In this document: positions 1-9,891 of the stretch, piece by piece
Layout: every line of letters begins with the position of its first letter
How positions within the stretch are numbered: the first letter of the stretch is position 1
Origin: a virus
Lineage: Duplodnaviria > Heunggongvirae > Uroviricota > Caudoviricetes
Length of the DNA stretch: 9,891 bases
Reading direction: 5' to 3' (one strand)
Virus record (IMG/VR): IMGVR_UViG_2681813320_000006
Coordinates: 1 to 9,891 of that record
Translations under genes and position numbers: made by a program
The notes under the pieces: generated by a model
The model's input: only the letters and a program-made list of their open reading frames with translations
The model's database searches: none
What the model was told of the DNA's origin: nothing

Positions 1-7
1 AAAAAAA

Positions 8-175
8 TCAAGCATTATGCAGGCTGTTTCTTTTTATCACCGGCCACAGCAATACCACAATGCCGCAGACCAGCACTCCATCCGCCAGCACCGACATGAT
101 CCTGCTGGTGAAATCCACCATCACCACCAGAAACAGCAGGAGTGCCACAGCGGCCAGACGCAGTTTTACCGTCAC
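8..175 (-). CDS. Possible small two-helix membrane protein (about 55 aa); could be holin-like, very uncertain
   Basis: Minus-strand ORF not in the supplied track. GTG at 175-173 overlaps the TerB-like stop (GTGA) with GGAG about 8 nt upstream; stop TGA at 10-8. Translation has two hydrophobic stretches (LRLAAVALLLFLVVMV, GVLVCGIVVLLWPVI). An internal ATG at 121 is an alternative start. The G/T-rich strand could produce hydrophobic codons by chance. Confidence 0.3.
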   Translation of the reverse strand: MTVKLRLAAVALLLFLVVMVDFTSRIMSVLADGVLVCGIVVLLWPVIKRNSLHNA

Positions 176-603
176 AGGTGGTTCTCCAGTCGCAGGCCAA
201 GAACACCAGCAATCTCTTCCAGAACCTTACGCTCTTCCGGCTCAATTTCACCATCTGCTTCAGCAATGGCCACCGCCACATCCAGCACATCTTCCGCTTC
301 ACGCGTATCGTGTTTCACATCTTCAATTTCACGCAACGCTGCACGACGACCAATTTTAAAATTGGTGTCAAGCTGACCTGTGATCGTGGCACTGATGGCA
401 TTAATTTCTGACGTAAATGCGGACAATGCTGGCTGGTTACGTAATACCTGTTCGATCTTCGCTTTCTCTGAAGTCTCACATTCACCATCTGCATAGGCCA
501 CCAGGTAGGCAGCATTAATAACCGCCTGTGCCAGATCGCGTTTCTCAAACTTTTTAATTTCAGTTGCTGCTCTGCGGGTTTTCTTTTTGAAGATTCCAAA
601 CAT
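172..603 (-). CDS. TerB-like (tellurite-resistance TerB family) domain protein, about 143 aa
   Basis: Track ORF 172..675 trimmed to the first ATG (603-601), which has AGGA 8 nt upstream; the track start at 675 is GTG. Acidic helical protein with AYLVAYADGE...AVAIAEADGEIEPEE pattern typical of TerB-like domains (recalled, not searched). Overlapping ORFs in other frames look non-coding. Confidence 0.65.
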   Translation of the reverse strand: MFGIFKKKTRRAATEIKKFEKRDLAQAVINAAYLVAYADGECETSEKAKIEQVLRNQPALSAFTSEINAISATITGQLDTNFKIGRRAALREIEDVKHDTREAEDVLDVAVAIAEADGEIEPEERKVLEEIAGVLGLRLENHL

Positions 604-734
604 CGTGACGTTCCTTTGGGTGGGTGAGCCAACGCCCGGGAGCGATCTGCCCACAGAGAAAGTCACACTGACCACTCCGTAAGCTCACCCCCGAAAGGCT
701 CTGTGGTTGATATGCGCCGGGCGTGGCGCAGATA

Positions 735-759
735 CAAAAAAGGCCCGCCGAAGCGAGCC
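735..759 (-). terminator. Rho-independent terminator downstream of the tRNA cluster
   Basis: On the minus strand: 7-bp stem GGCUCGC/GCGGGCC (one G-U pair) with UUCG tetraloop (759-742), followed by a 6-T run (741-736). The pairing is better on the minus-strand transcript than on the plus. Confidence 0.65.
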
Positions 760-772
760 TGGAAAATAAGTG

Positions 773-849
773 TGGCGCGTTGTAGTGGAGTCTAACCACT
801 GACCGATTGCTTAGAAGGCAATTGCTCTGTCCGACTGAGCTAACAACGC
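773..849 (-). tRNA. tRNA-Arg (anticodon UCU), phage-encoded, with an atypical T-loop
   Basis: Reverse complement folds as a 77-nt cloverleaf: acceptor GCGTTGT/ACAACGC, D-stem GCTC/GAGC, anticodon stem ATTGC/GCAAT with loop CTTCTAA, T-stem AGTGG/CCACT, discriminator G and CCA. The T-loop is TTAGACT instead of the usual TTCGAAT. Confidence 0.7.
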
Positions 850-929
850 ATGATGCTGATAATGGACCGCCACCGGGGACTCCGAATCTCGCACAGGGTG
901 ACGTTCTTTCCTGATGAGCTAGTGGCGGT

Positions 930-1005
930 TGGTGGCCCTTGCTGGATTTGAACCAGCGACCTGGCGATTATGAGTCACTCGCTCTCACCACTGAGCTAAA
1001 GGGCC
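930..1005 (-). tRNA. tRNA with CAU anticodon, most likely tRNA-Ile2 (lysidine type); tRNA-Met not excluded
   Basis: Reverse complement GGCCCTTTAGCTCAGTGGTGAGAGCGAGTGACTCATAATCGCCAGGTCGCTGGTTCAAATCCAGCAAGGGCCACCA folds as a 76-nt cloverleaf with 7-bp acceptor stem, T-loop TTCAAAT and anticodon loop CTCATAA. It closely resembles E. coli ileX/ileY as I recall them. Confidence 0.8.
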
Positions 1006-1045
1006 GATAACATAATGATAACGTTACAGAATAAATTCAGCAATA

Positions 1046-2104
1046 TCACTCTCTCTTTCTGATTAAATTCTGTACATCCCTTGCGGTCTGCTCAAAACGT
1101 CCGGTCTCCAGCTCAACGCCAATTGCACGACGCCCCAGTGCATTCGCTGCTTTGACTGTCGAACCGGACCCCATGAAGAAATCTGCAACCAGGTCTCCCG
1201 GACGACTGCTGGCGGTAATCATTTGCCGCAACATATCTGCCGGTTTTTCACAGGGATGTTTGCCCGGATAATACTGCACAGGCTTGTGCGTCCAGACATC
1301 CGTATAAGGAACGGCTGCCGATACGGAAAAATAACGCCGCAGTGATTTGTACTCTTCCAGCAGGCTGGCATACTGCCGGTTCAGCTCACTGTATGTGCTG
1401 ACCAGTTGGTGATGTGGCTTTTCCAGTTCACCCCGCTGATGTTTCTCTTCTGCCACCCGGGCAAACAGCACCTGAAGTTTTCTGTAATCATCCTCGTTCG
1501 GTAACTGCCACTGGCTGGCACTGAACCAGTGCGACACCATGTTTTTCTTTCCTGTGGCATCCACAATCTGTTTTGCCGTTATCCCCAGAGCAGCACGCGC
1601 ATCACGAAAGTAAGAAATCAGCGGGGCCATCACATGCTGTTTCAGTGCCCTGCCCTTCGCCTCATACCCGGCATCTTTCGGGCGATATGGCCCCTGGTAA
1701 TGTTCAGCAAACAGAACGCGCTCTGTGGCAGGAAAATATGCGCGCAGACGTTCTTTATTACACCCATTCCAACGTCCGGACGGCTTCGCCCAGATGATAT
1801 GGTTAAGCACGTTGAAACGTTCACGCATCATGATCTCAATATCAGATGCCAGGCGATGCCCACAGAACAGGTAAAGGCTTCCGGCAGGTTTTAACACCCG
1901 CCAGAACTGGGCCAGACAGTGGTCCAGCCACTTAAGGTAATCTTCGTCCCCTTTCCACTGATTGTCCCAACCGTTGGGTTTCACCTTGAAGTAAGGCGGA
2001 TCGGTAACAATCAGGTCAATGGAATCATCAGGCAGGGACTGAATAAAATGCAGGCAATCAGCGTTGATTAAATCAACACTGTTTATTTTTACAGTATTTT
2101 TCAT
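1046..2104 (-). CDS. DNA methyltransferase, beta class (N6-adenine or N4-cytosine), likely an orphan phage methylase
   Basis: 352-aa ORF with ATG start. N-terminal DPPY catalytic motif (LIVTDPPYF) precedes the C-terminal AdoMet-binding motif (FFMGSGST), the order diagnostic of beta-class amino-methyltransferases. No adjacent restriction endonuclease gene is visible. Confidence 0.9.
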   Translation of the reverse strand: MKNTVKINSVDLINADCLHFIQSLPDDSIDLIVTDPPYFKVKPNGWDNQWKGDEDYLKWLDHCLAQFWRVLKPAGSLYLFCGHRLASDIEIMMRERFNVLNHIIWAKPSGRWNGCNKERLRAYFPATERVLFAEHYQGPYRPKDAGYEAKGRALKQHVMAPLISYFRDARAALGITAKQIVDATGKKNMVSHWFSASQWQLPNEDDYRKLQVLFARVAEEKHQRGELEKPHHQLVSTYSELNRQYASLLEEYKSLRRYFSVSAAVPYTDVWTHKPVQYYPGKHPCEKPADMLRQMITASSRPGDLVADFFMGSGSTVKAANALGRRAIGVELETGRFEQTARDVQNLIRKRE

Positions 2105-2254
2105 GGATCAGTAAGCGTAACTCTGGTAGGCTCACTCTGCTTTTGCGCTAAAGCAGTGGGCCGTGGTTCGCTTGTGACCAGTAAGCATGAGCGAATGGCT
2201 GGCAGGTGCTACCAACACCCACCAGCCGCCCATTTTCACAGCAGGAAACCGCCA

Positions 2255-2458
2255 TTACTGGCAGCGTCTGAATTTATTCCCGTACCCGCCGTTATCCTTC
2301 GCCAGACCCGCCAGAACTAACTGAGTCAGTATTAACTGGCACTGGGCTTCGCTTACTCCGGTAGTTCTCGTCATCATGCGTGGCGTTACCCACTTGTCAG
2401 CAGGTAAGAAATGAAGGACTGCGGCGGCGGTTTCTGTCATATCTTGCTGTTTTATCAT
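2255..2458 (-). CDS. Hypothetical small protein (about 67 aa)
   Basis: Track ORF 2255..2482 trimmed to the second ATG (2458-2456), which has AGGGA about 8 nt upstream; the first ATG at 2482 has no Shine-Dalgarno. No recognisable motif. Confidence 0.45.
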   Translation of the reverse strand: MIKQQDMTETAAAVLHFLPADKWVTPRMMTRTTGVSEAQCQLILTQLVLAGLAKDNGGYGNKFRRCQ

Positions 2459-2580
2459 GTCTTTTTCCCTTCTGGTTAACATGACATACCAATAACTCTT
2501 GTCTAAAAAGCCAGCAAGATAAAAAGTCAGTATTCACGACCACCAGCGTGTTTACTGTACTGCACCAAGTTTACAGGTAC

Positions 2581-2606
2581 AAAAAACCGCTCGACGGCGG
2601 GTTTAA
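2581..2606 (-). terminator. Possible weak rho-independent terminator (candidate tR'-like late-region terminator)
   Basis: Minus strand: 4-bp all-GC stem CCGC/GCGG (2600-2597 with 2590-2587), 6-nt loop, then a 6-T run (2586-2581). The stem is short, so the call is marginal. Confidence 0.3.
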
Positions 2607-2736
2607 GCTGTGTGGCGAAGTAACCACTCTTAACAGATTAAGATAAAATTTGCGGACCGCGGTAATTTTTTTTGCTAAATTAAAGCCATATAAAAAATAA
2701 GCCCCATAAGAAATTATTAGCATACTAAGGTTTAGC

Positions 2737-3678
2737 ATGGCTACTATTGCGCAATCAAAGAAACAAAAAAAACTTAAAATTGGTTTTTACACCAGCAGTT
2801 CTGGGACTATCCGCAGCCATTCAGTTGCTAAGCAAGCAATTGAAAATCTGTATAATACTTGCGTAACCGTTACGAATAATCATTTTGATACCATCTATAG
2901 AAATAAAAAGTTAAAAATAGCTTTTATAAATAAAGATACAAAAGCTAAATATTTCTTCGGCTACATGTCATGCTCACGAGAAGAGTATCTCCTTCCTTAT
3001 ATTGGTGATGAACACTGGAATGAGCACAACATACCACTAGATGATAAAAAATACATAGTCGAAAGAACCTATTTTTTATATTATTACGATAGTGATATTT
3101 TAATATTAACTCAAAATCATCTTGGGCCGAAAGAATCGGATTTAGCTTATCTGCTTTACAGCCAGAGTGGTAATCCTGGAAATAACTTTGCATTCCAAGC
3201 CATCTGGAAAAAAGAGAGCGTCAAAGAGCTACTTGAAACAGGAAGTACTTTGAGAAGTTGTGATATTGTCCTGGCTGCTCCCAGGAACTTTGATGCAACA
3301 AATTACCAGCTAAATAGTTCATTTTCTAAGGAACTGGTAAATATGATGGTAGGGCTGGGTGGAACACGTCTCAAGTTAAATCTAAGGGGACGTGCATCAG
3401 GGAGAGTAAAAGTCAAAGGTTATTTATCAGATCTCGTTAAGGATGGTATTAAAGAACTCCTTGAAAAAATGCCGGGAATTGTAAAAAAAGCGGCAGTAAC
3501 ACAGCCCAAAAATACCGTTGAACAAAGTCTTCTTGATCAGGTACTCATTTCAGAAAAAAACATATATACCGTTAATGGTTATGGCACTGATAGTGATGTT
3601 CTGCAAGCCATGATTTCTGCTAAAATTGATAACAATGAATACCTTAAGCAATACGATATCAGCAAAAAGAAGGTATAG
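2737..3678 (+). CDS. Soluble 313-aa protein of unknown function; candidate sensor/activator of a two-gene phage-exclusion module (RexA-like by architecture)
   Basis: ATG at 2737 with TAAGG 6 nt upstream; stop TAG at 3676-3678. Strongly AT-rich (roughly one-third G+C by eye) with AAA/AAT/ATA-rich codon use, unlike the flanks. No Walker A, HNH or DPPY-type motifs seen. Same size class, gene order and N-terminal GFY motif as lambda RexA as I recall it. Confidence 0.8.
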   Translation: MATIAQSKKQKKLKIGFYTSSSGTIRSHSVAKQAIENLYNTCVTVTNNHFDTIYRNKKLKIAFINKDTKAKYFFGYMSCSREEYLLPYIGDEHWNEHNIPLDDKKYIVERTYFLYYYDSDILILTQNHLGPKESDLAYLLYSQSGNPGNNFAFQAIWKKESVKELLETGSTLRSCDIVLAAPRNFDATNYQLNSSFSKELVNMMVGLGGTRLKLNLRGRASGRVKVKGYLSDLVKDGIKELLEKMPGIVKKAAVTQPKNTVEQSLLDQVLISEKNIYTVNGYGTDSDVLQAMISAKIDNNEYLKQYDISKKKV

Positions 3679-3681
3679 GAT

Positions 3682-4125
3682 ATGTTATTGAAATACTTAA
3701 GAAACCTGATTGTAAGTGTTTTTTGCACCTTGTTCCTACTGAGGTATATCCCTCAGATGGGGCATGCTGACATACTTACAGCCTCCGGGGTTATTTCAAC
3801 TGTATCCGGTATTTTATTTGGTTTTATTTTAGCCACAATATCAATTTTTAGTGCTGCTAGCGAAAACTCAAATGGAATAATAAAAGCATTAAAAAACAAC
3901 AACATACTTCAAGTTATTATTGTAAATCTATTAACCGCAGGTGCATCTTTAATTACGGCATGCGTTATTGCTTTGATAGCAATGTTTGCCAATGAAAAGA
4001 CATTGTTACATGGAGAAAAAATAGAATTTATTTTAATTATCGAATCGTTATCTCTTCTTATCATTTCAGTAATAACTTTTGCCTTTACATGGAGAAAAGT
4101 AAACTGGATACTCCCCCACATTTAA
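3682..4125 (+). CDS. 147-aa integral membrane protein with four predicted transmembrane helices; candidate effector (RexB-like)
   Basis: ATG at 3682 with AAGAAGG 8 nt upstream, starting 4 bp after the upstream stop. Four hydrophobic segments (about residues 8-25, 30-58, 75-103, 114-138). The LFLLRYIP motif after helix 1 resembles lambda RexB LLFRHYIP as I recall it. Stop TAA at 4123-4125. Confidence 0.85.
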   Translation: MLLKYLRNLIVSVFCTLFLLRYIPQMGHADILTASGVISTVSGILFGFILATISIFSAASENSNGIIKALKNNNILQVIIVNLLTAGASLITACVIALIAMFANEKTLLHGEKIEFILIIESLSLLIISVITFAFTWRKVNWILPHI

Positions 4126-4148
4126 AAAGGGCAGAAATGCCCTTTTTT
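4124..4148. terminator. Bidirectional rho-independent terminator shared by the convergent cassette and the Q gene
   Basis: AAAAA-GGGCA-GAAA-TGCCC-TTTTTT: 5-bp stem (4129-4133 with 4138-4142), GAAA tetraloop, A-run on one side and T-run on the other, so it reads as hairpin plus U-tract on either strand. It sits between the cassette stop (4125) and the Q stop (4149). Confidence 0.6.
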
Positions 4149-4511
4149 CTACTCCATTTCAAGTTTAACATCCAGCATTGAAAGGCATCCATCAATAAAC
4201 CCTTCAGCCATCTGTATCTCTATACGTATCAATTTCTCATCTTTTTTGCGAGCTCTTGCAAGCTTTCTTTTCGAGATGCCATACAGGTAATGGGCCACAA
4301 TCAAAGAATGCTCGTACGGTTTTCGCTTTTTAAGAAGAGCAAGACAACCTTCAATAATTAATGCATCACTATCTGAACAAGCCTGACGTGTTTTGCTTGT
4401 ATAGGGAAGAAGCCCTTTAAACCCAGCAGCTATAGGAGAATAGTCTACTCCTGAACTATCACTCGCCGCCCATGCTCCCCAACGATCCAGAACCATTTGA
4501 ATATCACGCAT
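4149..4511 (-). CDS. Late-gene antitermination protein Q (short Q family, QuuD-like), about 120 aa
   Basis: Track ORF 4149..4526 trimmed to ATG at 4511-4509 (the track start is TTG), with GGAG about 8 nt upstream. N-terminus MRDIQMVLDRWGAWAA matches the E. coli DLP12 QuuD N-terminus as I recall it. Position after the replication module fits a Q gene. Confidence 0.75.
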   Translation of the reverse strand: MRDIQMVLDRWGAWAASDSSGVDYSPIAAGFKGLLPYTSKTRQACSDSDALIIEGCLALLKKRKPYEHSLIVAHYLYGISKRKLARARKKDEKLIRIEIQMAEGFIDGCLSMLDVKLEME

Positions 4512-4528
4512 CAACTTTCTCCACAAAA

Positions 4529-5524
4529 TCAGGCCAGCACGCCAATTGCCAGCGCGCGATCGATAAAACGAAATATCAGCTCCAGCTGGGAACCATACTT
4601 CTCTTCAAATGCCACGGTATCCGCATGCAGTTCGTCATGGTGTTTTCTGCACAAAGGCAACACAAAAAGGTCATGCGCTTTTGTACCCATACCACCCTGA
4701 CCATGACCAATCAGGTGATGAGGATCGTCGGCTGGCTTACCACAACATGCACACGGCTGCGTCTTAACCCAGCGCGTGTACTTTTCATTAACCCAGCGAC
4801 GACGTTTTGGGCGTAACATAAAAGACTCCGGCGACTCCGGATCCACTTTCAGCGCCAGCACCTTTTTCGCTTTATCCTGGATGATGCTGGTGGCAGGAAC
4901 CGAAGGCACAAGGTCACTTTCCCGGGTGACAGACGGCACAACAGGTTTCGGTAATCTCAGCGCCTTACGGGCTGCGCTTTCAGGTAAGGCATCCGCCAGG
5001 TCATTACGAATCAGCCACCAGCACAGTTCCGGCATTGTCACGGCATGGTTATCATCAAAACCGAGATCCCGACGGACTACAGACAACACCCAGCGGGCAC
5101 AGTTATCCGTTGCCATTGATTCCAGCCGTTCCGTGAACTGATCGCGCAGCTGGTTATCGCAGTGCCAGCACAGACGGATTGCGCCCGGAGCGTGTCGCAT
5201 TGTGGTCATGTTCTCGCTGTGCCAGTCGGAATGAGGCCACTGGCAGCCTTTTTCACGAAGTAACCAGCTTTCAAGACATTCCACTCCACCAGCACGACGA
5301 ATAACTGCCTCATTGCGGAACACGGCCCGAACGGCAGGATCATCCGCCAGCGGTTGTGATGCTGCCGGAACGGCACCGCTGGCGAAAGATGAATAACGTT
5401 CCGGCTCAGGCTCCAGCAGGACACGCCCCTGCATAAACAGGGGCATCAGCTCTGAACCGGGCCTGAACAATACAATCCCCATTCGCGGGGCAATTTCAGG
5501 AGTCAACAATGCTCTCACGGTCAC
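4529..5524 (-). CDS. DUF968-like prophage protein (YdfU-like) with a C-terminal Cys/His zinc-binding, HNH-like motif
   Basis: 331-aa ORF. C-terminus has CACCGKP...HHLIGHGQGGMGTKAHD...PLCRKHHDELH, a Cys/His cluster of the kind seen in DUF968/YdfU-type proteins. The track start at 5524 is GTG; a GTG at 5518 with GAGG upstream or an ATG at 5485 are alternatives, so the start is uncertain. Confidence 0.7.
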   Translation of the reverse strand: MTVRALLTPEIAPRMGIVLFRPGSELMPLFMQGRVLLEPEPERYSSFASGAVPAASQPLADDPAVRAVFRNEAVIRRAGGVECLESWLLREKGCQWPHSDWHSENMTTMRHAPGAIRLCWHCDNQLRDQFTERLESMATDNCARWVLSVVRRDLGFDDNHAVTMPELCWWLIRNDLADALPESAARKALRLPKPVVPSVTRESDLVPSVPATSIIQDKAKKVLALKVDPESPESFMLRPKRRRWVNEKYTRWVKTQPCACCGKPADDPHHLIGHGQGGMGTKAHDLFVLPLCRKHHDELHADTVAFEEKYGSQLELIFRFIDRALAIGVLA

Positions 5525-5569
5525 CTCAGCGAACGATATTGCATGAACACAGGAGAAAAAATTCAGCCA

Positions 5570-5827
5570 TCACGCAGTAAACTCCTTCACCAGAGTTTCA
5601 AACTGGCTTACCTTGCCTTCCAGTTCCGCCACGCAATCCACCAGCTCATCCACCGCCTTTTGTGTGCGGTGTTTTGCCTGCAGCAGATCACGAAGCGCCG
5701 GAGTAAGCTGCTTGCGGAGCGTATCCTTTGCCACGCTCATTTTTTCCATCTGTTCAGCACAACGAAGCATCTCCTGCGCCTGGCGACGAAGTTGTTCCGG
5801 TGAAACAGTGGCTGTTCTGTTATTCAA
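5570..5827 (-). CDS. Hypothetical small coiled-coil protein (85 aa)
   Basis: TTG start at 5827 overlaps the helicase stop (TTGA) with GGAG about 8 nt upstream, suggesting translational coupling. Charged helical sequence (EQLRRQAQEMLRCAEQMEKM...), no identifiable domain. Internal ATGs are alternative starts. Confidence 0.45.
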   Translation of the reverse strand: MNNRTATVSPEQLRRQAQEMLRCAEQMEKMSVAKDTLRKQLTPALRDLLQAKHRTQKAVDELVDCVAELEGKVSQFETLVKEFTA

Positions 5828-7224
5828 AATAAACGCTCCGCTTTACTGCCCGACATGCGGTTATTGCTGTATCTGCGCGGATTGCCCGGCGTCATGGGTG
5901 TGGAAAGCCCCCGGGCACTTTCCTGGTCCACAGGCAGAAAATGCCCGTTATGAAAACGTCGGTAAATGGTCCCGAGTGTGCCATTACGCTGTTTCGTGAT
6001 GTTGATTTCTGCTATGCCTCTCGCCTGTGTATCCGGGTTATACACCTCATCCCTGTAAAGCATCAGAATGATGTCGGCATCAGCCTCTATTTCCCCGGAG
6101 TTTTTCAGGTCTGAGTTCATGGGACGTTTATTGGGTCTGGATTCCACGCCGCGGGAGAGCTGGCTCAGAGCAATCAGCGGGAAACCGCCGGATTTTGCCA
6201 GGCTTTTAAGTCCCTTTGAGATTTCCCCCACCGCAAGGTCGTGACGCCCCGTGCTGCGGGTTTTAATCAGACCGAGGTAATCGACCACCACCAGCGCCGT
6301 TTCCGGATGCTTCATCCGGTGGTACCTCGTGGTTGCACATATCTCATCAATGGTCAGATTTGCCTGGTCCACCATCCAGATATTACGCCCCGTCATTCGT
6401 CCCACACCCTGTGAGAAACGTGCCCAGTCTTCGTCTTCAAAACGGGCAACAGACTTAAGACGGGATACCGGCATTCCCCCTGCTGCAGACACCATACGTT
6501 CACCAATCTGGATGTTCGCCATCTCCATGGTGAACAGAAGCACGCCATGCCCCTGCTCAGTCACCTTGTCGATGATGTCCAGCGCCAGTTCGGTTTTCCC
6601 CATCGAAGGACGAGCCGCAATGAATACCAGGTCGCCTGGCTCCATCCCCCCTGTTTTTGCGTCCAGTTCATCAATACCGGTCATCAGCGCCCTGGATTTC
6701 TCCAGTCCCTGATTCCGGCATTCAACACGGCCCACCACTTCCGGAAGGACATCATCAATGTGAACCGGCTGAATGACGCCCTTTCCGGTCGACAGTGAGG
6801 CCATCATGTTCTGCGCATCCTTCAGGGCATCTTCTGCCGCTTCGCAGGTATGTGCATCACGTAAATTCTGTAATGCTTCGGTCAGTGTTTTTTCTGCATC
6901 GCGCAGTACGGCATTTCGCCGCAGCGCTGCAACATAGTGCTCCAGTGAAGACTTCACCCAGGTTTTGCGCCCGGTGTCAGTAATCACCGGGGCAAGTTCC
7001 GGCATCTCATTGCACAGCAGCACGGGGTCAATGACGCCGGATACGCGGGCCTGTCTGCAAATCCCCGCGTAAATATCCCGGTACTGACGCACGAAAAATA
7101 CATCCGCCGGAAGCGTGGCCAGAATATCCATCACTTCCGGATCAGCCCCACGCAGAAAAAACGCGCCAATCACCGCACCTTCCAGGTCATCGTTACGCCA
7201 TGCCGGGTTGTTCTGGCTGGTCAT
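5824..7224 (-). CDS. Replicative DNA helicase, DnaB family (phage-encoded)
   Basis: 466-aa ORF with ATG at 7224 overlapping the upstream stop (ATGA). Walker A (ARPSMGKT), Walker B-like VVVDYLGL and DnaB-like downstream motifs (SGGFPLIALSQLSR). Size and N-terminal domain fit DnaB-type helicases such as P22 gp12. Confidence 0.92.
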   Translation of the reverse strand: MTSQNNPAWRNDDLEGAVIGAFFLRGADPEVMDILATLPADVFFVRQYRDIYAGICRQARVSGVIDPVLLCNEMPELAPVITDTGRKTWVKSSLEHYVAALRRNAVLRDAEKTLTEALQNLRDAHTCEAAEDALKDAQNMMASLSTGKGVIQPVHIDDVLPEVVGRVECRNQGLEKSRALMTGIDELDAKTGGMEPGDLVFIAARPSMGKTELALDIIDKVTEQGHGVLLFTMEMANIQIGERMVSAAGGMPVSRLKSVARFEDEDWARFSQGVGRMTGRNIWMVDQANLTIDEICATTRYHRMKHPETALVVVDYLGLIKTRSTGRHDLAVGEISKGLKSLAKSGGFPLIALSQLSRGVESRPNKRPMNSDLKNSGEIEADADIILMLYRDEVYNPDTQARGIAEINITKQRNGTLGTIYRRFHNGHFLPVDQESARGLSTPMTPGNPRRYSNNRMSGSKAERLF

Positions 7225-8099
7225 GCGGCAACACCTCCGATACGAGAACGGTAGCTGGGCCAGTTAAACGACAACCAGTTGCGCCCGCCATCGGTGATCC
7301 TGTCGGCAATCCGGGGACTGATGAACGCCCACAATTCTTCCGGTGAAAGGTTGCTGATCAAGATAGTTGGCAAAATACCCTCATACCGGGCATTGATAAT
7401 TTCCTGCAAAATGGCCATTTCAGCCGCACTGCCAAACTGAACGCCGACTTCGTCGATGATCAGCAAATCCAGTGACGCATAATGCTCAATGACGTCATCC
7501 GCTGTTTTTTCACTGTCATTCCGCCAGCAGTTTTTCACAGCACGGGTAAGGCGCATCACGTCGGTGATCTCCACACTGGCCAGATAGTTACGGATGATGT
7601 GTTTTGCCATTGATACCGCCAGATGATTTTTCCCGGTACCGCAACTGCCGGTCATAACAAGACTGGTACCGTTCTCCAGCATATCTGGCCAGTTCTCCAC
7701 ATAGCGGCGACAGGCCGCAAGATTTCTGGCTGCGTCAGGATTAACCTCCAGATAATTATCAAACTCGCAGTCCCGAAAACGCAGAGCAATTCCGGCGTTA
7801 TCAGTCAGTTCTTCCGCCTTGAGGGACGACAGCTCCATGGTCAAATCGTTGGCCTCAGCTATCAAGCAGTCAGGGCAGCATGAAATTTTTTCTCTGTCCT
7901 CGCCATTACGATCGCTCCACACCAGAATATGTGTGTGGTATTCGCCATGTTTTTCGCAACACCCGCGCCCTTCACGCATCCAGCAGGAACGATAAGGCCA
8001 TGGCTTTTCGCCCTTCTGAGCAAATGCAATCTCTGCCCGTAACTCATCCATCCGCGCCTGTAGTCTTGTTTGTTGTTCACGCAGGTTAAACGTCATCAT
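7221..8099 (-). CDS. DnaC/IstB-like AAA+ helicase loader with an N-terminal Cys-rich, probably zinc-binding, extension
   Basis: Walker A MTGSCGTGKNHLA and Walker B LLIIDEVG. Track start 8108 is GTG; the ATG at 8099 has GAGGTGA 5 nt upstream and is preferred. N-terminal region has CC...H.H...CCPDC cysteine/histidine clusters. Confidence 0.88.
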   Translation of the reverse strand: MMTFNLREQQTRLQARMDELRAEIAFAQKGEKPWPYRSCWMREGRGCCEKHGEYHTHILVWSDRNGEDREKISCCPDCLIAEANDLTMELSSLKAEELTDNAGIALRFRDCEFDNYLEVNPDAARNLAACRRYVENWPDMLENGTSLVMTGSCGTGKNHLAVSMAKHIIRNYLASVEITDVMRLTRAVKNCWRNDSEKTADDVIEHYASLDLLIIDEVGVQFGSAAEMAILQEIINARYEGILPTILISNLSPEELWAFISPRIADRITDGGRNWLSFNWPSYRSRIGGVAA

Positions 8100-8109
8100 C
8101 TCTGTCACC

Positions 8110-9018
8110 TCAGAATGTCAATTTGTCACTGGATTTACCGAATTTGTCAGACATGGCTCCCAGGCCAGCCAGGACATCGACCTGTCGCTGTCGCCCACCT
8201 CCGGGAGCAGATGGCTGTTGCCATGATTCGTCAAAGTGTCGATCGGGGCCAAAGAACGTCGACGCCTGCTTCACGAACTGAGTGCCGGTATTTCCTGAGA
8301 CACGCACCCAGGCGGCATAGCGTTTCACACCGTTGAGCATGGTTTCGGGTGTCACACCTTCCCTGATTCGGGCTTTCCAGGCTTTGAAGGCTGCTGACTT
8401 GGAATTACCACCAGCACGTTTGGGATATTCCTGCCAGGCCTGTTCAAATTCCGGTGAATATTCCTGTCGGGCAGAACGTGCTGGTGCAGACGCGTCAGCG
8501 GATGCGCCAATAGTGTTTTTACTCTCTGTAGTATTCTCTGAAGTAATCTCTGTTGTATTCTCTGTAAGATCGAAATTGGTTTTCCCTTCTCCGCGGCGAG
8601 GGGTTTCCCGTGTCCGCGGTGAAGGCTTTCCCTCCTCCGCGAAATTGGGTTTTACAGTTTCCCGAAAACGGGTTTCCCCATTTCGGGAAAACTGATTGTT
8701 TTCATTGATAATTTCATTAAGGCGCTCACAATCTATACGGTAGAACATTTTGTGCTCAAGACGCTTGTTGGTTTCAACCAAAATGCCTCTGGACACAAGA
8801 TGCTTACGCGCTACAGCCTGTTGTTCAAATGTAAGTCCTGTTTCGTGTTGTATCTCTTCACGCGTTTTATGTACGCCTTCCGCTGCATGTGCTTTATCCT
8901 GCCAGTAAAAAATCTGACCAAAGAAAATAACAGCGTGCGGACTTCCCATGTATTTAACGAGCCCAGGGTAATAAGCAACCGGATGTCCAAAATCGAGCAG
9001 AAGATCAGACGGACGCAT
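8110..9018 (-). CDS. Replication initiator (lambda O-like, origin-binding) with a repeat-encoded linker
   Basis: Track ORF 8110..9024 trimmed to ATG 9018 (GGAGGTG 5 nt upstream; the track start is GTG). The central protein region (TENTTEITSENTTESKNT, PRTRETPRRGEGKT) is encoded by DNA direct repeats, as in lambda O where the ori iterons lie inside the gene. It sits immediately upstream of the helicase-loader and helicase genes. Confidence 0.75.
   Translation of the reverse strand: MRPSDLLLDFGHPVAYYPGLVKYMGSPHAVIFFGQIFYWQDKAHAAEGVHKTREEIQHETGLTFEQQAVARKHLVSRGILVETNKRLEHKMFYRIDCERLNEIINENNQFSRNGETRFRETVKPNFAEEGKPSPRTRETPRRGEGKTNFDLTENTTEITSENTTESKNTIGASADASAPARSARQEYSPEFEQAWQEYPKRAGGNSKSAAFKAWKARIREGVTPETMLNGVKRYAAWVRVSGNTGTQFVKQASTFFGPDRHFDESWQQPSAPGGGRQRQVDVLAGLGAMSDKFGKSSDKLTF
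8523..8695. repeat. Iteron-like direct repeats inside the O-like gene (candidate replication origin) followed by an AT-rich stretch
   Basis: Four 12-bp tandem units containing TCTCTG (8523-8570). Five TTTCCC-containing units at 8581, 8603, 8627, 8658, 8673 (about 22-24 bp apart) with internal dyads such as CCCGAAAACGGG and TTTCGGGAAA. AT-rich segment at about 8690-8725. Confidence 0.6.
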
Positions 9019-9238
9019 AGCCACCTCCCAGGCGTTTAAACATTTTTCCGGACTGAAACGCCACCAGCGGATAACTCAGGGTATGAGTACGCCCCTGCAC
9101 CTGGCAGACAACCTTCTGACTTTCTGCATTGACCAGGCAAACCCGCAGAACGTGGCCGTTGCTGGTGGTGAACCACTGCCCCACACGGGGGCAACGGTTG
9201 TATCGGTGATACAGGGAATTAACGATGTAGCGGATCAT
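9005..9238 (-). CDS. Hypothetical small protein (77 aa)
   Basis: ATG at 9238 with GGAGGTG 5 nt upstream, overlapping the upstream stop (ATGA). Its 3' end overlaps the O-like start by 14 nt. No recognisable domain. Confidence 0.55.
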   Translation of the reverse strand: MIRYIVNSLYHRYNRCPRVGQWFTTSNGHVLRVCLVNAESQKVVCQVQGRTHTLSYPLVAFQSGKMFKRLGGGYASV

Positions 9239-9429
9239 GGACGCACCTCCGCCGTAGTTACGTATTTAACTGGGCTACCTTTCATTGAGATGGTTTCACA
9301 CATCCCTGCCGCTTTCAGTTCCGCCGTTTTTCTGGATTTATAGCGACGATGCCAGACAGATACATCCGTGCGAACTGATACATCGTTTCTGTATTCCGTA
9401 GTGGAGATGATGATTTCGTAACTAATCAT
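9235..9429 (-). CDS. Hypothetical small protein (64 aa)
   Basis: ATG at 9429 with AAGGAGGTG 5 nt upstream, overlapping the upstream stop (ATGA). Part of a translationally coupled chain of minus-strand genes. Confidence 0.5.
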   Translation of the reverse strand: MISYEIIISTTEYRNDVSVRTDVSVWHRRYKSRKTAELKAAGMCETISMKGSPVKYVTTAEVRP

Positions 9430-9731
9430 GGGTGCACCTCCTTGTCAGAACCATTCAGCCTGTAATCAACAAGTGCAGCACCAAAAACTGCATCACCTAC
9501 ACGGTCGTACAGTTTGCCAGCCAGCGGAGATTCAACGGCCTTAAGCATTGGATAAAGCTGGCTTGTCCAGATTTGGTGGATTTCTCGCAAATGCAGGTAT
9601 ACGCCTCTGGCGTTTTGTGCGACAGATGGCATATCAGCCGCACCAACTCCTGATAAGCACCTCTCCATCTGGTTAAAGGCATTGATGTATGCTTCTTTGA
9701 ACCGGGCAGCACGTTTACCCGTGAAACCCAT
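9426..9731 (-). CDS. C-terminal portion of a Rha-like (Phage_pRha-type) regulatory protein; N-terminal part appears interrupted or truncated
   Basis: The reading frame stays open upstream of ATG 9731 to a TAA at 9851-9849 and encodes ...SEYTDASGRKLPCYQITRDGFAFLAMGFTGKRAARFKEAYINAFNQME, which resembles the conserved core of Rha-family proteins as I recall it. No ATG/GTG/TTG start lies between that stop and 9731, and 9731 has no Shine-Dalgarno. Confidence 0.45.
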   Translation of the reverse strand: MGFTGKRAARFKEAYINAFNQMERCLSGVGAADMPSVAQNARGVYLHLREIHQIWTSQLYPMLKAVESPLAGKLYDRVGDAVFGAALVDYRLNGSDKEVHP

Positions 9732-9891
9732 AGCAAGAAACGCAAAACCGTCGCGGGTGATTTGGTAACAAGGGAGTTTGCGGCCTGATGCGTCGGTGTA
9801 TTCACTTAACAGTAAGCGTGCAGCAAGAACCGTATTGACGGGGATGTGTTATTCAGTCGGCAGTGCTACGCGCCAGGGGAGCAGTTCGCCG

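Follow-up and report, generated by a model that had tools for sequence, protein, structure and literature searches.

What are two AT-rich genes doing inside a lambdoid prophage, transcribed against the direction of all their neighbours and running head-on into the antiterminator gene Q? We addressed this question in a 9,891-nucleotide stretch of viral DNA (IMG/VR record IMGVR_UViG_2681813320_000006, positions 1 to 9,891; hereafter the window), in which the two genes, hereafter the cassette, encode a soluble protein (protein 1) and a small membrane protein (protein 2). We consider the cassette a candidate for a horizontally exchanged, self-contained two-gene exclusion (abortive-infection) module of the RexAB type, a reading to which we give a probability of roughly 0.65. 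Our best reading of its place among such systems is that of a sixth, sequence-divergent Rex-like lineage, composed of the DUF6731 family and its partner and located beside Q instead of beside a repressor.

A discrete AT-rich insert at the end of Q

The cassette, its signals and its immediate borders comprise the following features.

2737-3678, plus strand: gene 1, 313 amino acids, soluble and basic; proposed sensor/activator
3682-4125, plus strand: gene 2, 147 amino acids, four membrane helices; proposed RexB-like effector
2674-2736, plus strand: upstream region with the gene 1 ribosome-binding site and a presumed promoter; left edge from blastn against phage PPyecE_EH1910
4124-4147, both strands: bidirectional intrinsic terminator, AAAAAGGGCA-GAAA-TGCCCTTTTT, a 10-bp hairpin between the gene 2 stop codon (4125) and the Q stop codon (4149)
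4149-4526, minus strand: antiterminator gene Q (PF06530, Pfam E 5e-52), convergent with the cassette
2581-2672, minus strand: post-Q block, putative late promoter P_R', Q-utilisation site and first terminator, assigned by position and conservation

The original prediction had described a two-gene plus-strand cassette in an otherwise minus-strand prophage, and the coordinates and strands of the open reading frames (ORFs) agree with it: the cassette is the only plus-strand pair, all remaining long ORFs for which our scan of the window gave a family match lie on the minus strand, and only 3 nucleotides separate the stop codon of gene 1 from the start codon of gene 2. The compositional step that had been set as a check is also present, with a G+C content of 0.346 over 2607-4148 (0.355 in gene 1 and 0.327 in gene 2) against 0.510 in the left flank and 0.519 in the right. 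Both ORFs can be taken as real genes and not as products of chance, because an exhaustive profile search gathered 230 cluster representatives for the family of protein 1 and the family of protein 2 has 184 members.

The borders of the insert are given by an empty site. Phage PPyecE_EH1910 carries a related Q gene and no cassette (blastn), and the counterparts of window positions 2426-2673 and 4153-4600 lie ~21 bp apart in it; since both flanks are joined so closely there, we place the insert at ~2674-4152, where it fits precisely into the junction of the Q stop codon with the conserved post-Q segment. Thus the cassette is real and does lie between Q and the late region, as had been proposed, but its predicted extent of 2607-4148 began too early and took in ~65 bp of the conserved post-Q segment. 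The terminator falls within the insert as judged from the empty site.

Ribosome-binding sites and a terminator of its own, likewise claimed for the cassette, can be recognised. Shine-Dalgarno-like motifs read from the sequence precede gene 1 (TAAGG, 2726-2730) and gene 2 (AAGG, 3670-3673), and the terminator hairpin folds as RNA on both the plus strand (-13.4 kcal/mol, z -4.6) and the minus strand (-13.0 kcal/mol, z -2.9), with U-runs flanking it on both. We infer that the promoter of gene 1 lies within 2674-2736, where a -10-like TATAAA stands at 2689-2694 behind a poor -35 element. The upstream sequences of other alleles show no conservation with one another, and an Rfam search over 2100-4600 returned nothing.

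Protein 1 and the RexA fold

Protein 1 matches DUF6731 (PF20505) with 41.3 bits against a gathering cut-off of 27 (E 1.8e-10), as do 70 of its 81 relatives, and RefSeq annotates it as a member of that family. No motif of a recognised enzyme family had been seen in either protein beforehand, and standard family hidden Markov models (HMMs) indeed fail for both. Scans of Pfam, NCBIfam and PADLOC gave nothing informative beyond DUF6731, neither protein matches any PADLOC v2 model at E<=1 (Kiwa and the PD- and PDC- candidates included), and in PHROGs both fall only into families without known function, phrog_8552 in the case of protein 2. With 44 lysine and arginine residues to 33 aspartate and glutamate residues, protein 1 has a net charge of +11 that is compatible with DNA binding; both DNA binding and a homodimer are predicted only.

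The relation to RexA emerges when families are compared with families. We assembled RexA and RexB family alignments from divergent pairs of phages and plasmids, with 24-76% identity to lambda, and used hhalign to compare a DUF6731 profile of 81 sequences with a RexA alignment of 8 members. The two families align over 146 co-linear columns, protein 1 residues 100-272 to RexA residues 81-234 (P 3.5e-4), with a score of 34.8 against 13.9 +/- 2.3 for column shuffles (maximum 22.2), a score that 0 of 200 shuffles reached; the cross-pair controls gave P 0.5 and 0.8. Only the family-against-family comparison gave this signal; with lambda RexA or RexB entered as a single sequence, hhalign did not reach significance (P 0.04-0.09).

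The structural model of protein 1 has the two-domain organisation of RexA, a split globular domain with an inserted four-strand/helical dimerisation domain. An N-terminal sheet is followed by an insert of four strands and helices (150-260) and then by a C-terminal strand and helices, and the RexA hinge (140-142) aligns with the loop at 159-161, which in the model separates the N-terminal sheet from the inserted domain. The structural score is 12.2 against RexA and 6.9 against RdgC, and the modelled fold is of the RexA/RdgC two-domain class, closest to lambda RexA. Membership in RdgC itself was rejected, given the lack of an RdgC HMM match and a structure nearer to RexA.

Protein 2 and the RexB topology

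Hydropathy separates the two proteins in the way that had been foreseen, with 0 hydrophobic segments in protein 1 and 4 in protein 2. The AlphaFold2 model of protein 2, with a predicted local distance difference test (pLDDT) value of 82, consists of four long helices, and the positive-inside rule suggests that its N and C termini are both cytoplasmic. Protein 2 therefore has the RexB-type size (~145 amino acids), the four helices and the downstream position. Helix 2 carries a conserved LFGF motif, and G87, C94 and W137 are conserved as well; the near-invariant Lys71 of the central loop recalls the essential R70 and D73 of gp31 of mycobacteriophage Sbash.

Against the RexB family, hhalign gave a weak alignment of 63 co-linear columns (P 0.014), a score reached by 1 of 200 shuffles, and a reversed template gave P 0.23. 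Foldseek searches of BFVD found the best viral fold matches of both proteins in one uncultured phage, and the second viral match of protein 2 was a 165-residue Sbash protein that is not confirmed as gp31 (E 0.049, template modelling (TM) score 0.54). Membership among the holins was rejected, as there was no Pfam holin match.

Linkage, distribution and divergence of the pair

The two genes are strictly linked. At all loci examined, the gene that comes after DUF6731 has the same orientation, belongs to the protein 2 family and encodes 134-153 amino acids; the order is always RexA-like to RexB-like, the genes are either 0-21 nucleotides apart or overlapping, and the pairing is kept in sampled loci from 99% down to ~20% identity. 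In every host the cassette has a G+C content of 0.35-0.41 against 0.49-0.56 in neighbouring genes. The same DNA (99.5%) is present as orf54/orf53 in the cytolethal-distending-toxin phage cdtI, and the allele of the window occurs in 25 of 5426 complete Escherichia coli genomes. A second E. coli allele, found in 73 of the 5426 (~1.8% for both alleles together), sits between the same flanks, yet its two proteins are 47% and 44% identical to those of the window, compared with 87.5% for Q and 98.5% for the neighbouring DUF968 protein. This fast divergence, together with the AT-richness and the swappable site, resembles the evolution typical of defence cargo, and we count it in favour of an exclusion module.

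The arrangement convergent with Q recurs in prophages of Escherichia, Citrobacter, Yersinia, Pectobacterium and Serratia, with a PF06530-type Q next to the second E. coli allele and in Yersinia, Pectobacterium and Serratia. The pair is also found away from Q, in Pantoea, in Vibrio and on three metagenomic contigs at ~20% identity. A scan of genome contigs returned only 3 loci.

Individual copies depart from this pattern. Citrobacter braakii ATCC 51113 (locus L015, 5001-5945) carries a gene 1 near-identical to that of the window with a stop at codon 8, and this copy is probably inactivated. On one Pectobacterium contig (L025, 4436-4906) no gene is called for the protein 2 homolog, while the neighbouring locus L024 has one; the gene may have escaped annotation, or the copy may be disrupted. 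In E. coli O139:H1 and many porcine enterotoxigenic E. coli genomes (L002, 5183-7594), the cassette is joined leftward, from window position 2532, to a gene for an AraC-family regulator and a tRNA-Gly gene, which replace the phrog_331 ORF and the methylase gene of the window, and in these genomes RefSeq starts protein 2 later, at 122 amino acids.

A model for RexAB-type exclusion and its alternatives

We propose a model for the cassette by homology with lambda RexAB, Sbash gp30/gp31, CarolAnn gp44/gp43 and Pseudomonas putida RexABpp. A promoter of the cassette itself would drive both genes in the lysogen. Protein 1, probably a dimer that binds DNA, would sense a product or a DNA-protein intermediate of an infecting phage and activate protein 2 via the cytoplasmic loop of the latter. 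Protein 2 would then oligomerise to a channel or pore, the membrane would lose its integrity or potential, ATP would drop, growth would stop and the infection would be aborted. With the two genes so tightly coupled, the proteins would be made at a set ratio, and for lambda Rex this ratio is known to be important. Upon induction of the prophage, antiterminated early-rightward transcription through Q would cross the cassette in the antisense direction and could switch it off, so avoiding self-exclusion; if true, such silencing would be a built-in escape that replaces the P_LIT/RexB excess of lambda. That the position between Q and P_R' is functional at all, either through antisense silencing in the prophage's own lytic phase or through a RexA-like protein acting on the Q/P_R' late switch, nevertheless appears doubtful to us. 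Regulation presumably differs from that of the known Rex-like systems.

The interpretation as a Rex-like sensor with a membrane effector, already put forward in the original prediction, is supported in silico by the fold, the profile-profile signal and the linkage. Several observations weigh against it. The RexA models of Pfam (PF15969, E<=0.1) and PADLOC (PDLC02339, E<=1) are not matched by protein 1, nor the RexB models PF15968 and PDLC02340 by protein 2, although lambda RexA and RexB as positive controls match the same models strongly, and PF15969 matches 0 of 81 DUF6731 members. HH-suite gives RexA a probability of only 37%, a modest support; HMM profile searches of PDB sequences did not find RexA and returned only chance matches to IF3 and eIF2-alpha; and lambda RexA and RexB are themselves absent from the Foldseek matches in BFVD. 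The link to RexB is weak, a four-helix membrane bundle being a simple fold, and the identity of the 165-residue Sbash protein with gp31 is unverified. A consensus promoter scan upstream of gene 1 found no site scoring at least 9/12. The cassette is far from any repressor in the window, and the five Rex-like systems described to date are all located in or near the immunity region by CI-like repressors (PMC12894663). The literature searched contains no mention of DUF6731/PF20505 and no experiment on the family. Finally, lambda RexA takes part in the lysis-lysogeny switch as well, a role outside defence, and the authors of that work ask whether its primary function is exclusion (PMC11077077).

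This last point leads to a different account, in which the RexA-like protein would tune the late transcription or induction of its own prophage, with the membrane protein as an antagonist or anchor. Lambda RexA binds DNA non-specifically and stabilises the lytic state (CI/Cro bias), it is antagonised by RexB, and exclusion may be a by-product (PMC11077077); the convergent position of the pair, which in five genera is fixed between Q and the post-Q block, would suit such a modulator as well. However, the pair also occurs without Q as a neighbour (Vibrio, Pantoea and the metagenomic contigs), phages with the same Q module lack it or hold other cargo, and rapid allelic divergence between conserved flanks better fits a conflict with outside phages, and we regard developmental modulation as unlikely. 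A similarly small probability attaches to a reversal of roles, in which the toxic or antiviral action would reside in protein 1, with protein 2 doing no more than keeping it sequestered until a phage infects. The precedent is gp30/gp31 of phage Butters, where a RexA-like protein of the cytosol is paired with a membrane protein of four helices and the cytosolic one alone is needed for defence (PMC12894663, PMC7542560), and the cassette has the same architecture. Yet the membrane protein is the effector in 4 of the 5 described systems (PMC12894663), and the strong conservation of protein 2 within its helices (LFGF, G87, C94 and W137) suggests that it is more than an anchor.

A shared fold need not mean a shared function, and the pair might act as a membrane-tethered RdgC-like recombination regulator, or as a membrane protein with a cytoplasmic partner in superinfection exclusion (Sie), by blocking injection, or in lysis control. 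The structural score, nearly twice as high for RexA as for RdgC, and the lack of any Pfam RdgC, holin or Sie match argue otherwise, as does the fact that the cassette is transcribed away from the late/lysis operon, insulated from it, and also found outside prophage lysis contexts; we consider a non-Rex function improbable. Least probable of all, in our estimate, is a silent or decaying passenger, an AT-rich moron without current function. AT-rich DNA is commonly silenced in enterobacteria, no strong consensus promoter was found, and the interrupted gene 1 of Citrobacter braakii and the Pectobacterium contig without a called protein 2 gene could be read as signs of decay. Against this, both frames are intact and co-conserved at ~20-99% identity over many genera with invariant residues, and long ORFs in DNA of 35% G+C are not kept by chance.

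Comparison with known systems

Set beside the RexA/RexB pair of lambda (PF15969/PF15968; PDB 8TWQ), the proteins of the cassette have ~12-13% identity and no Rex HMM match, and protein 1 is 34 residues longer; RexB, with 144 amino acids to the 147 of protein 2, likewise has four helices and a downstream gene position. The rex genes of lambda belong to the cI-rexA-rexB immunity operon, whereas the cassette stands between Q and the putative late promoter with its own terminator. RexABpp of the P. putida prophage P1 (PP_5643/PP_5644), compared here by description, lies downstream of a CI-like repressor, and RexApp was related to RexA with an HHpred probability of 98%, in contrast to the 37% from HH-suite for protein 1 (PMC12894663). 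The actinobacteriophage pairs Sbash gp30/gp31 (PMC6426596), CarolAnn gp44/gp43 and Butters gp30/gp31 are likewise composed of a soluble and a four-pass membrane protein, and these Rex-like pairs are prophage-expressed and confer heterotypic defence. Their hosts are Actinobacteria, the two proteins of Butters have exchanged roles, and their RexA-like proteins have 337-372 amino acids with a DUF4747 motif, which the Pfam scan did not find in protein 1. RdgC (PDB 2OWL) is the product of a housekeeping gene without a membrane partner, whereas the cassette is mobile AT-rich cargo. Kiwa is another two-gene defence system, with the multi-helix membrane protein KwaA and the soluble KwaB of ~300 amino acids; membership in it was rejected, as there was no PADLOC match.

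A separate observation concerns plasmids. Two very small ColE1-type plasmids, the 3.3-kb E. coli plasmid NZ_AP022250 (L034, 1102-2383) and the 5.2-kb pYR5 of Yersinia ruckeri (L036, 458-1716), carry a RexA-like gene followed by a gene for 145 amino acids. Both genes are annotated as hypothetical, the RexA-like products are 24-27% identical to lambda RexA, and the two loci look like cases of a RexAB-like pair outside prophages.

The post-Q block and the Q-adjacent site

The block to the left of the insert abuts the Q stop codon directly in PPyecE_EH1910 and is near-invariant in an alignment of five phages with differing cargo, where it is marked by GCGGTCCGC...GTTAAGAGTGG. Read on the minus strand, it begins with a -35-like TTACCG (2665-2660), followed by the palindrome GCGGTCCGC (2660-2652) and an A/T-rich -10-like CTTAAT (2642-2637); an invariant, presumably transcribed stretch of ~40 nucleotides with GTTAAGAGTGGTTACTTCGCCACACAGCTTAAACCCGCCG leads to a hairpin (2599-2587) and a T-run (2586-2581), and the terminator scan reports a terminator-like site in the block. 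The same scan had reported a plus-strand terminator at 2650-2662, which we rejected: it is the GCGGTCCGC palindrome and folds poorly (-4.5 kcal/mol, z 0.1). Because of its position and conservation we take the block for the putative late promoter, with a start predicted near 2630 on the minus strand, and it is probably the P_R'/qut/tR' unit (promoter, Q-utilisation site and terminator) for PF06530-type Q proteins, which would probably yield a predicted short RNA of ~50 nucleotides. On this reading, Q would be parted by the cassette from the promoter that belongs to it.

The Q-adjacent site is variable, since related phages hold other cargo there or none. Phage vB_EcoS-569R4 (L012, 2808-4203) carries another plus-strand pair in this position near Q, made up of a soluble protein of 286 amino acids (phrog_2802) and a multi-helix membrane protein of 182, with no Pfam or PADLOC match and no significant similarity to RexA/RexB or DUF6731; this pair could be another module of sensor and membrane effector. 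In Shigella phage SfIV (L019, 91-2010), the sequence 3' of a related Q holds a transposase gene of IS1 and, on the plus strand, two genes for 356 and 108 amino acids, which are not detectably Rex-like and have no PADLOC match, and phage Ayreon has small ORFs at the same post-Q site. To call the site a defence hotspot is a suggestion only, as the cargo of 569R4 and SfIV has no detectable relation to Rex or to PADLOC systems.

The surrounding prophage

The window covers the early-right/late junction in a lambdoid prophage, and tRNA genes, two of which are present here, are common in lambdoid late regions. Its remaining features are listed below.

172-675, minus strand: ORF of 167 amino acids at the window's left end, beyond the tRNA genes on their downstream side, with a TerB (tellurite-resistance) domain
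773-849, minus strand: tRNA-Arg (anticodon tct), downstream of the methylase gene
930-1005, minus strand: tRNA of the Met or Ile2 type (anticodon cat), likewise downstream of the methylase gene
1046-2104, minus strand: N6/N4 DNA methylase, by family match
2255-2482, minus strand: small phrog_331 ORF, by family match
4529-5524, minus strand: DUF968/HNH protein, by family match
5824-7224, minus strand: DnaB-like ORF of 466 amino acids, named by reading the translation
7221-8108 and 8110-9024, minus strand: two further ORFs, from translations read only

Implications

The finding is useful rather than startling. Should the RexAB-type reading hold, DUF6731, each of whose cluster representatives comes with the partner family, gains a hypothesis for its function, and a lineage would be added that current defence finders miss. 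The Q/P_R' junction is furthermore pointed to as a site of exchangeable cargo in phages with a PF06530-type Q. The cassette would also be a Rex-type pair native to lambdoid prophages of E. coli, which could be set against lambda Rex in a common host and with identical phage collections. As the trigger of lambda Rex is still sought after 70 years, the cassette would provide a tractable E. coli system for this question.

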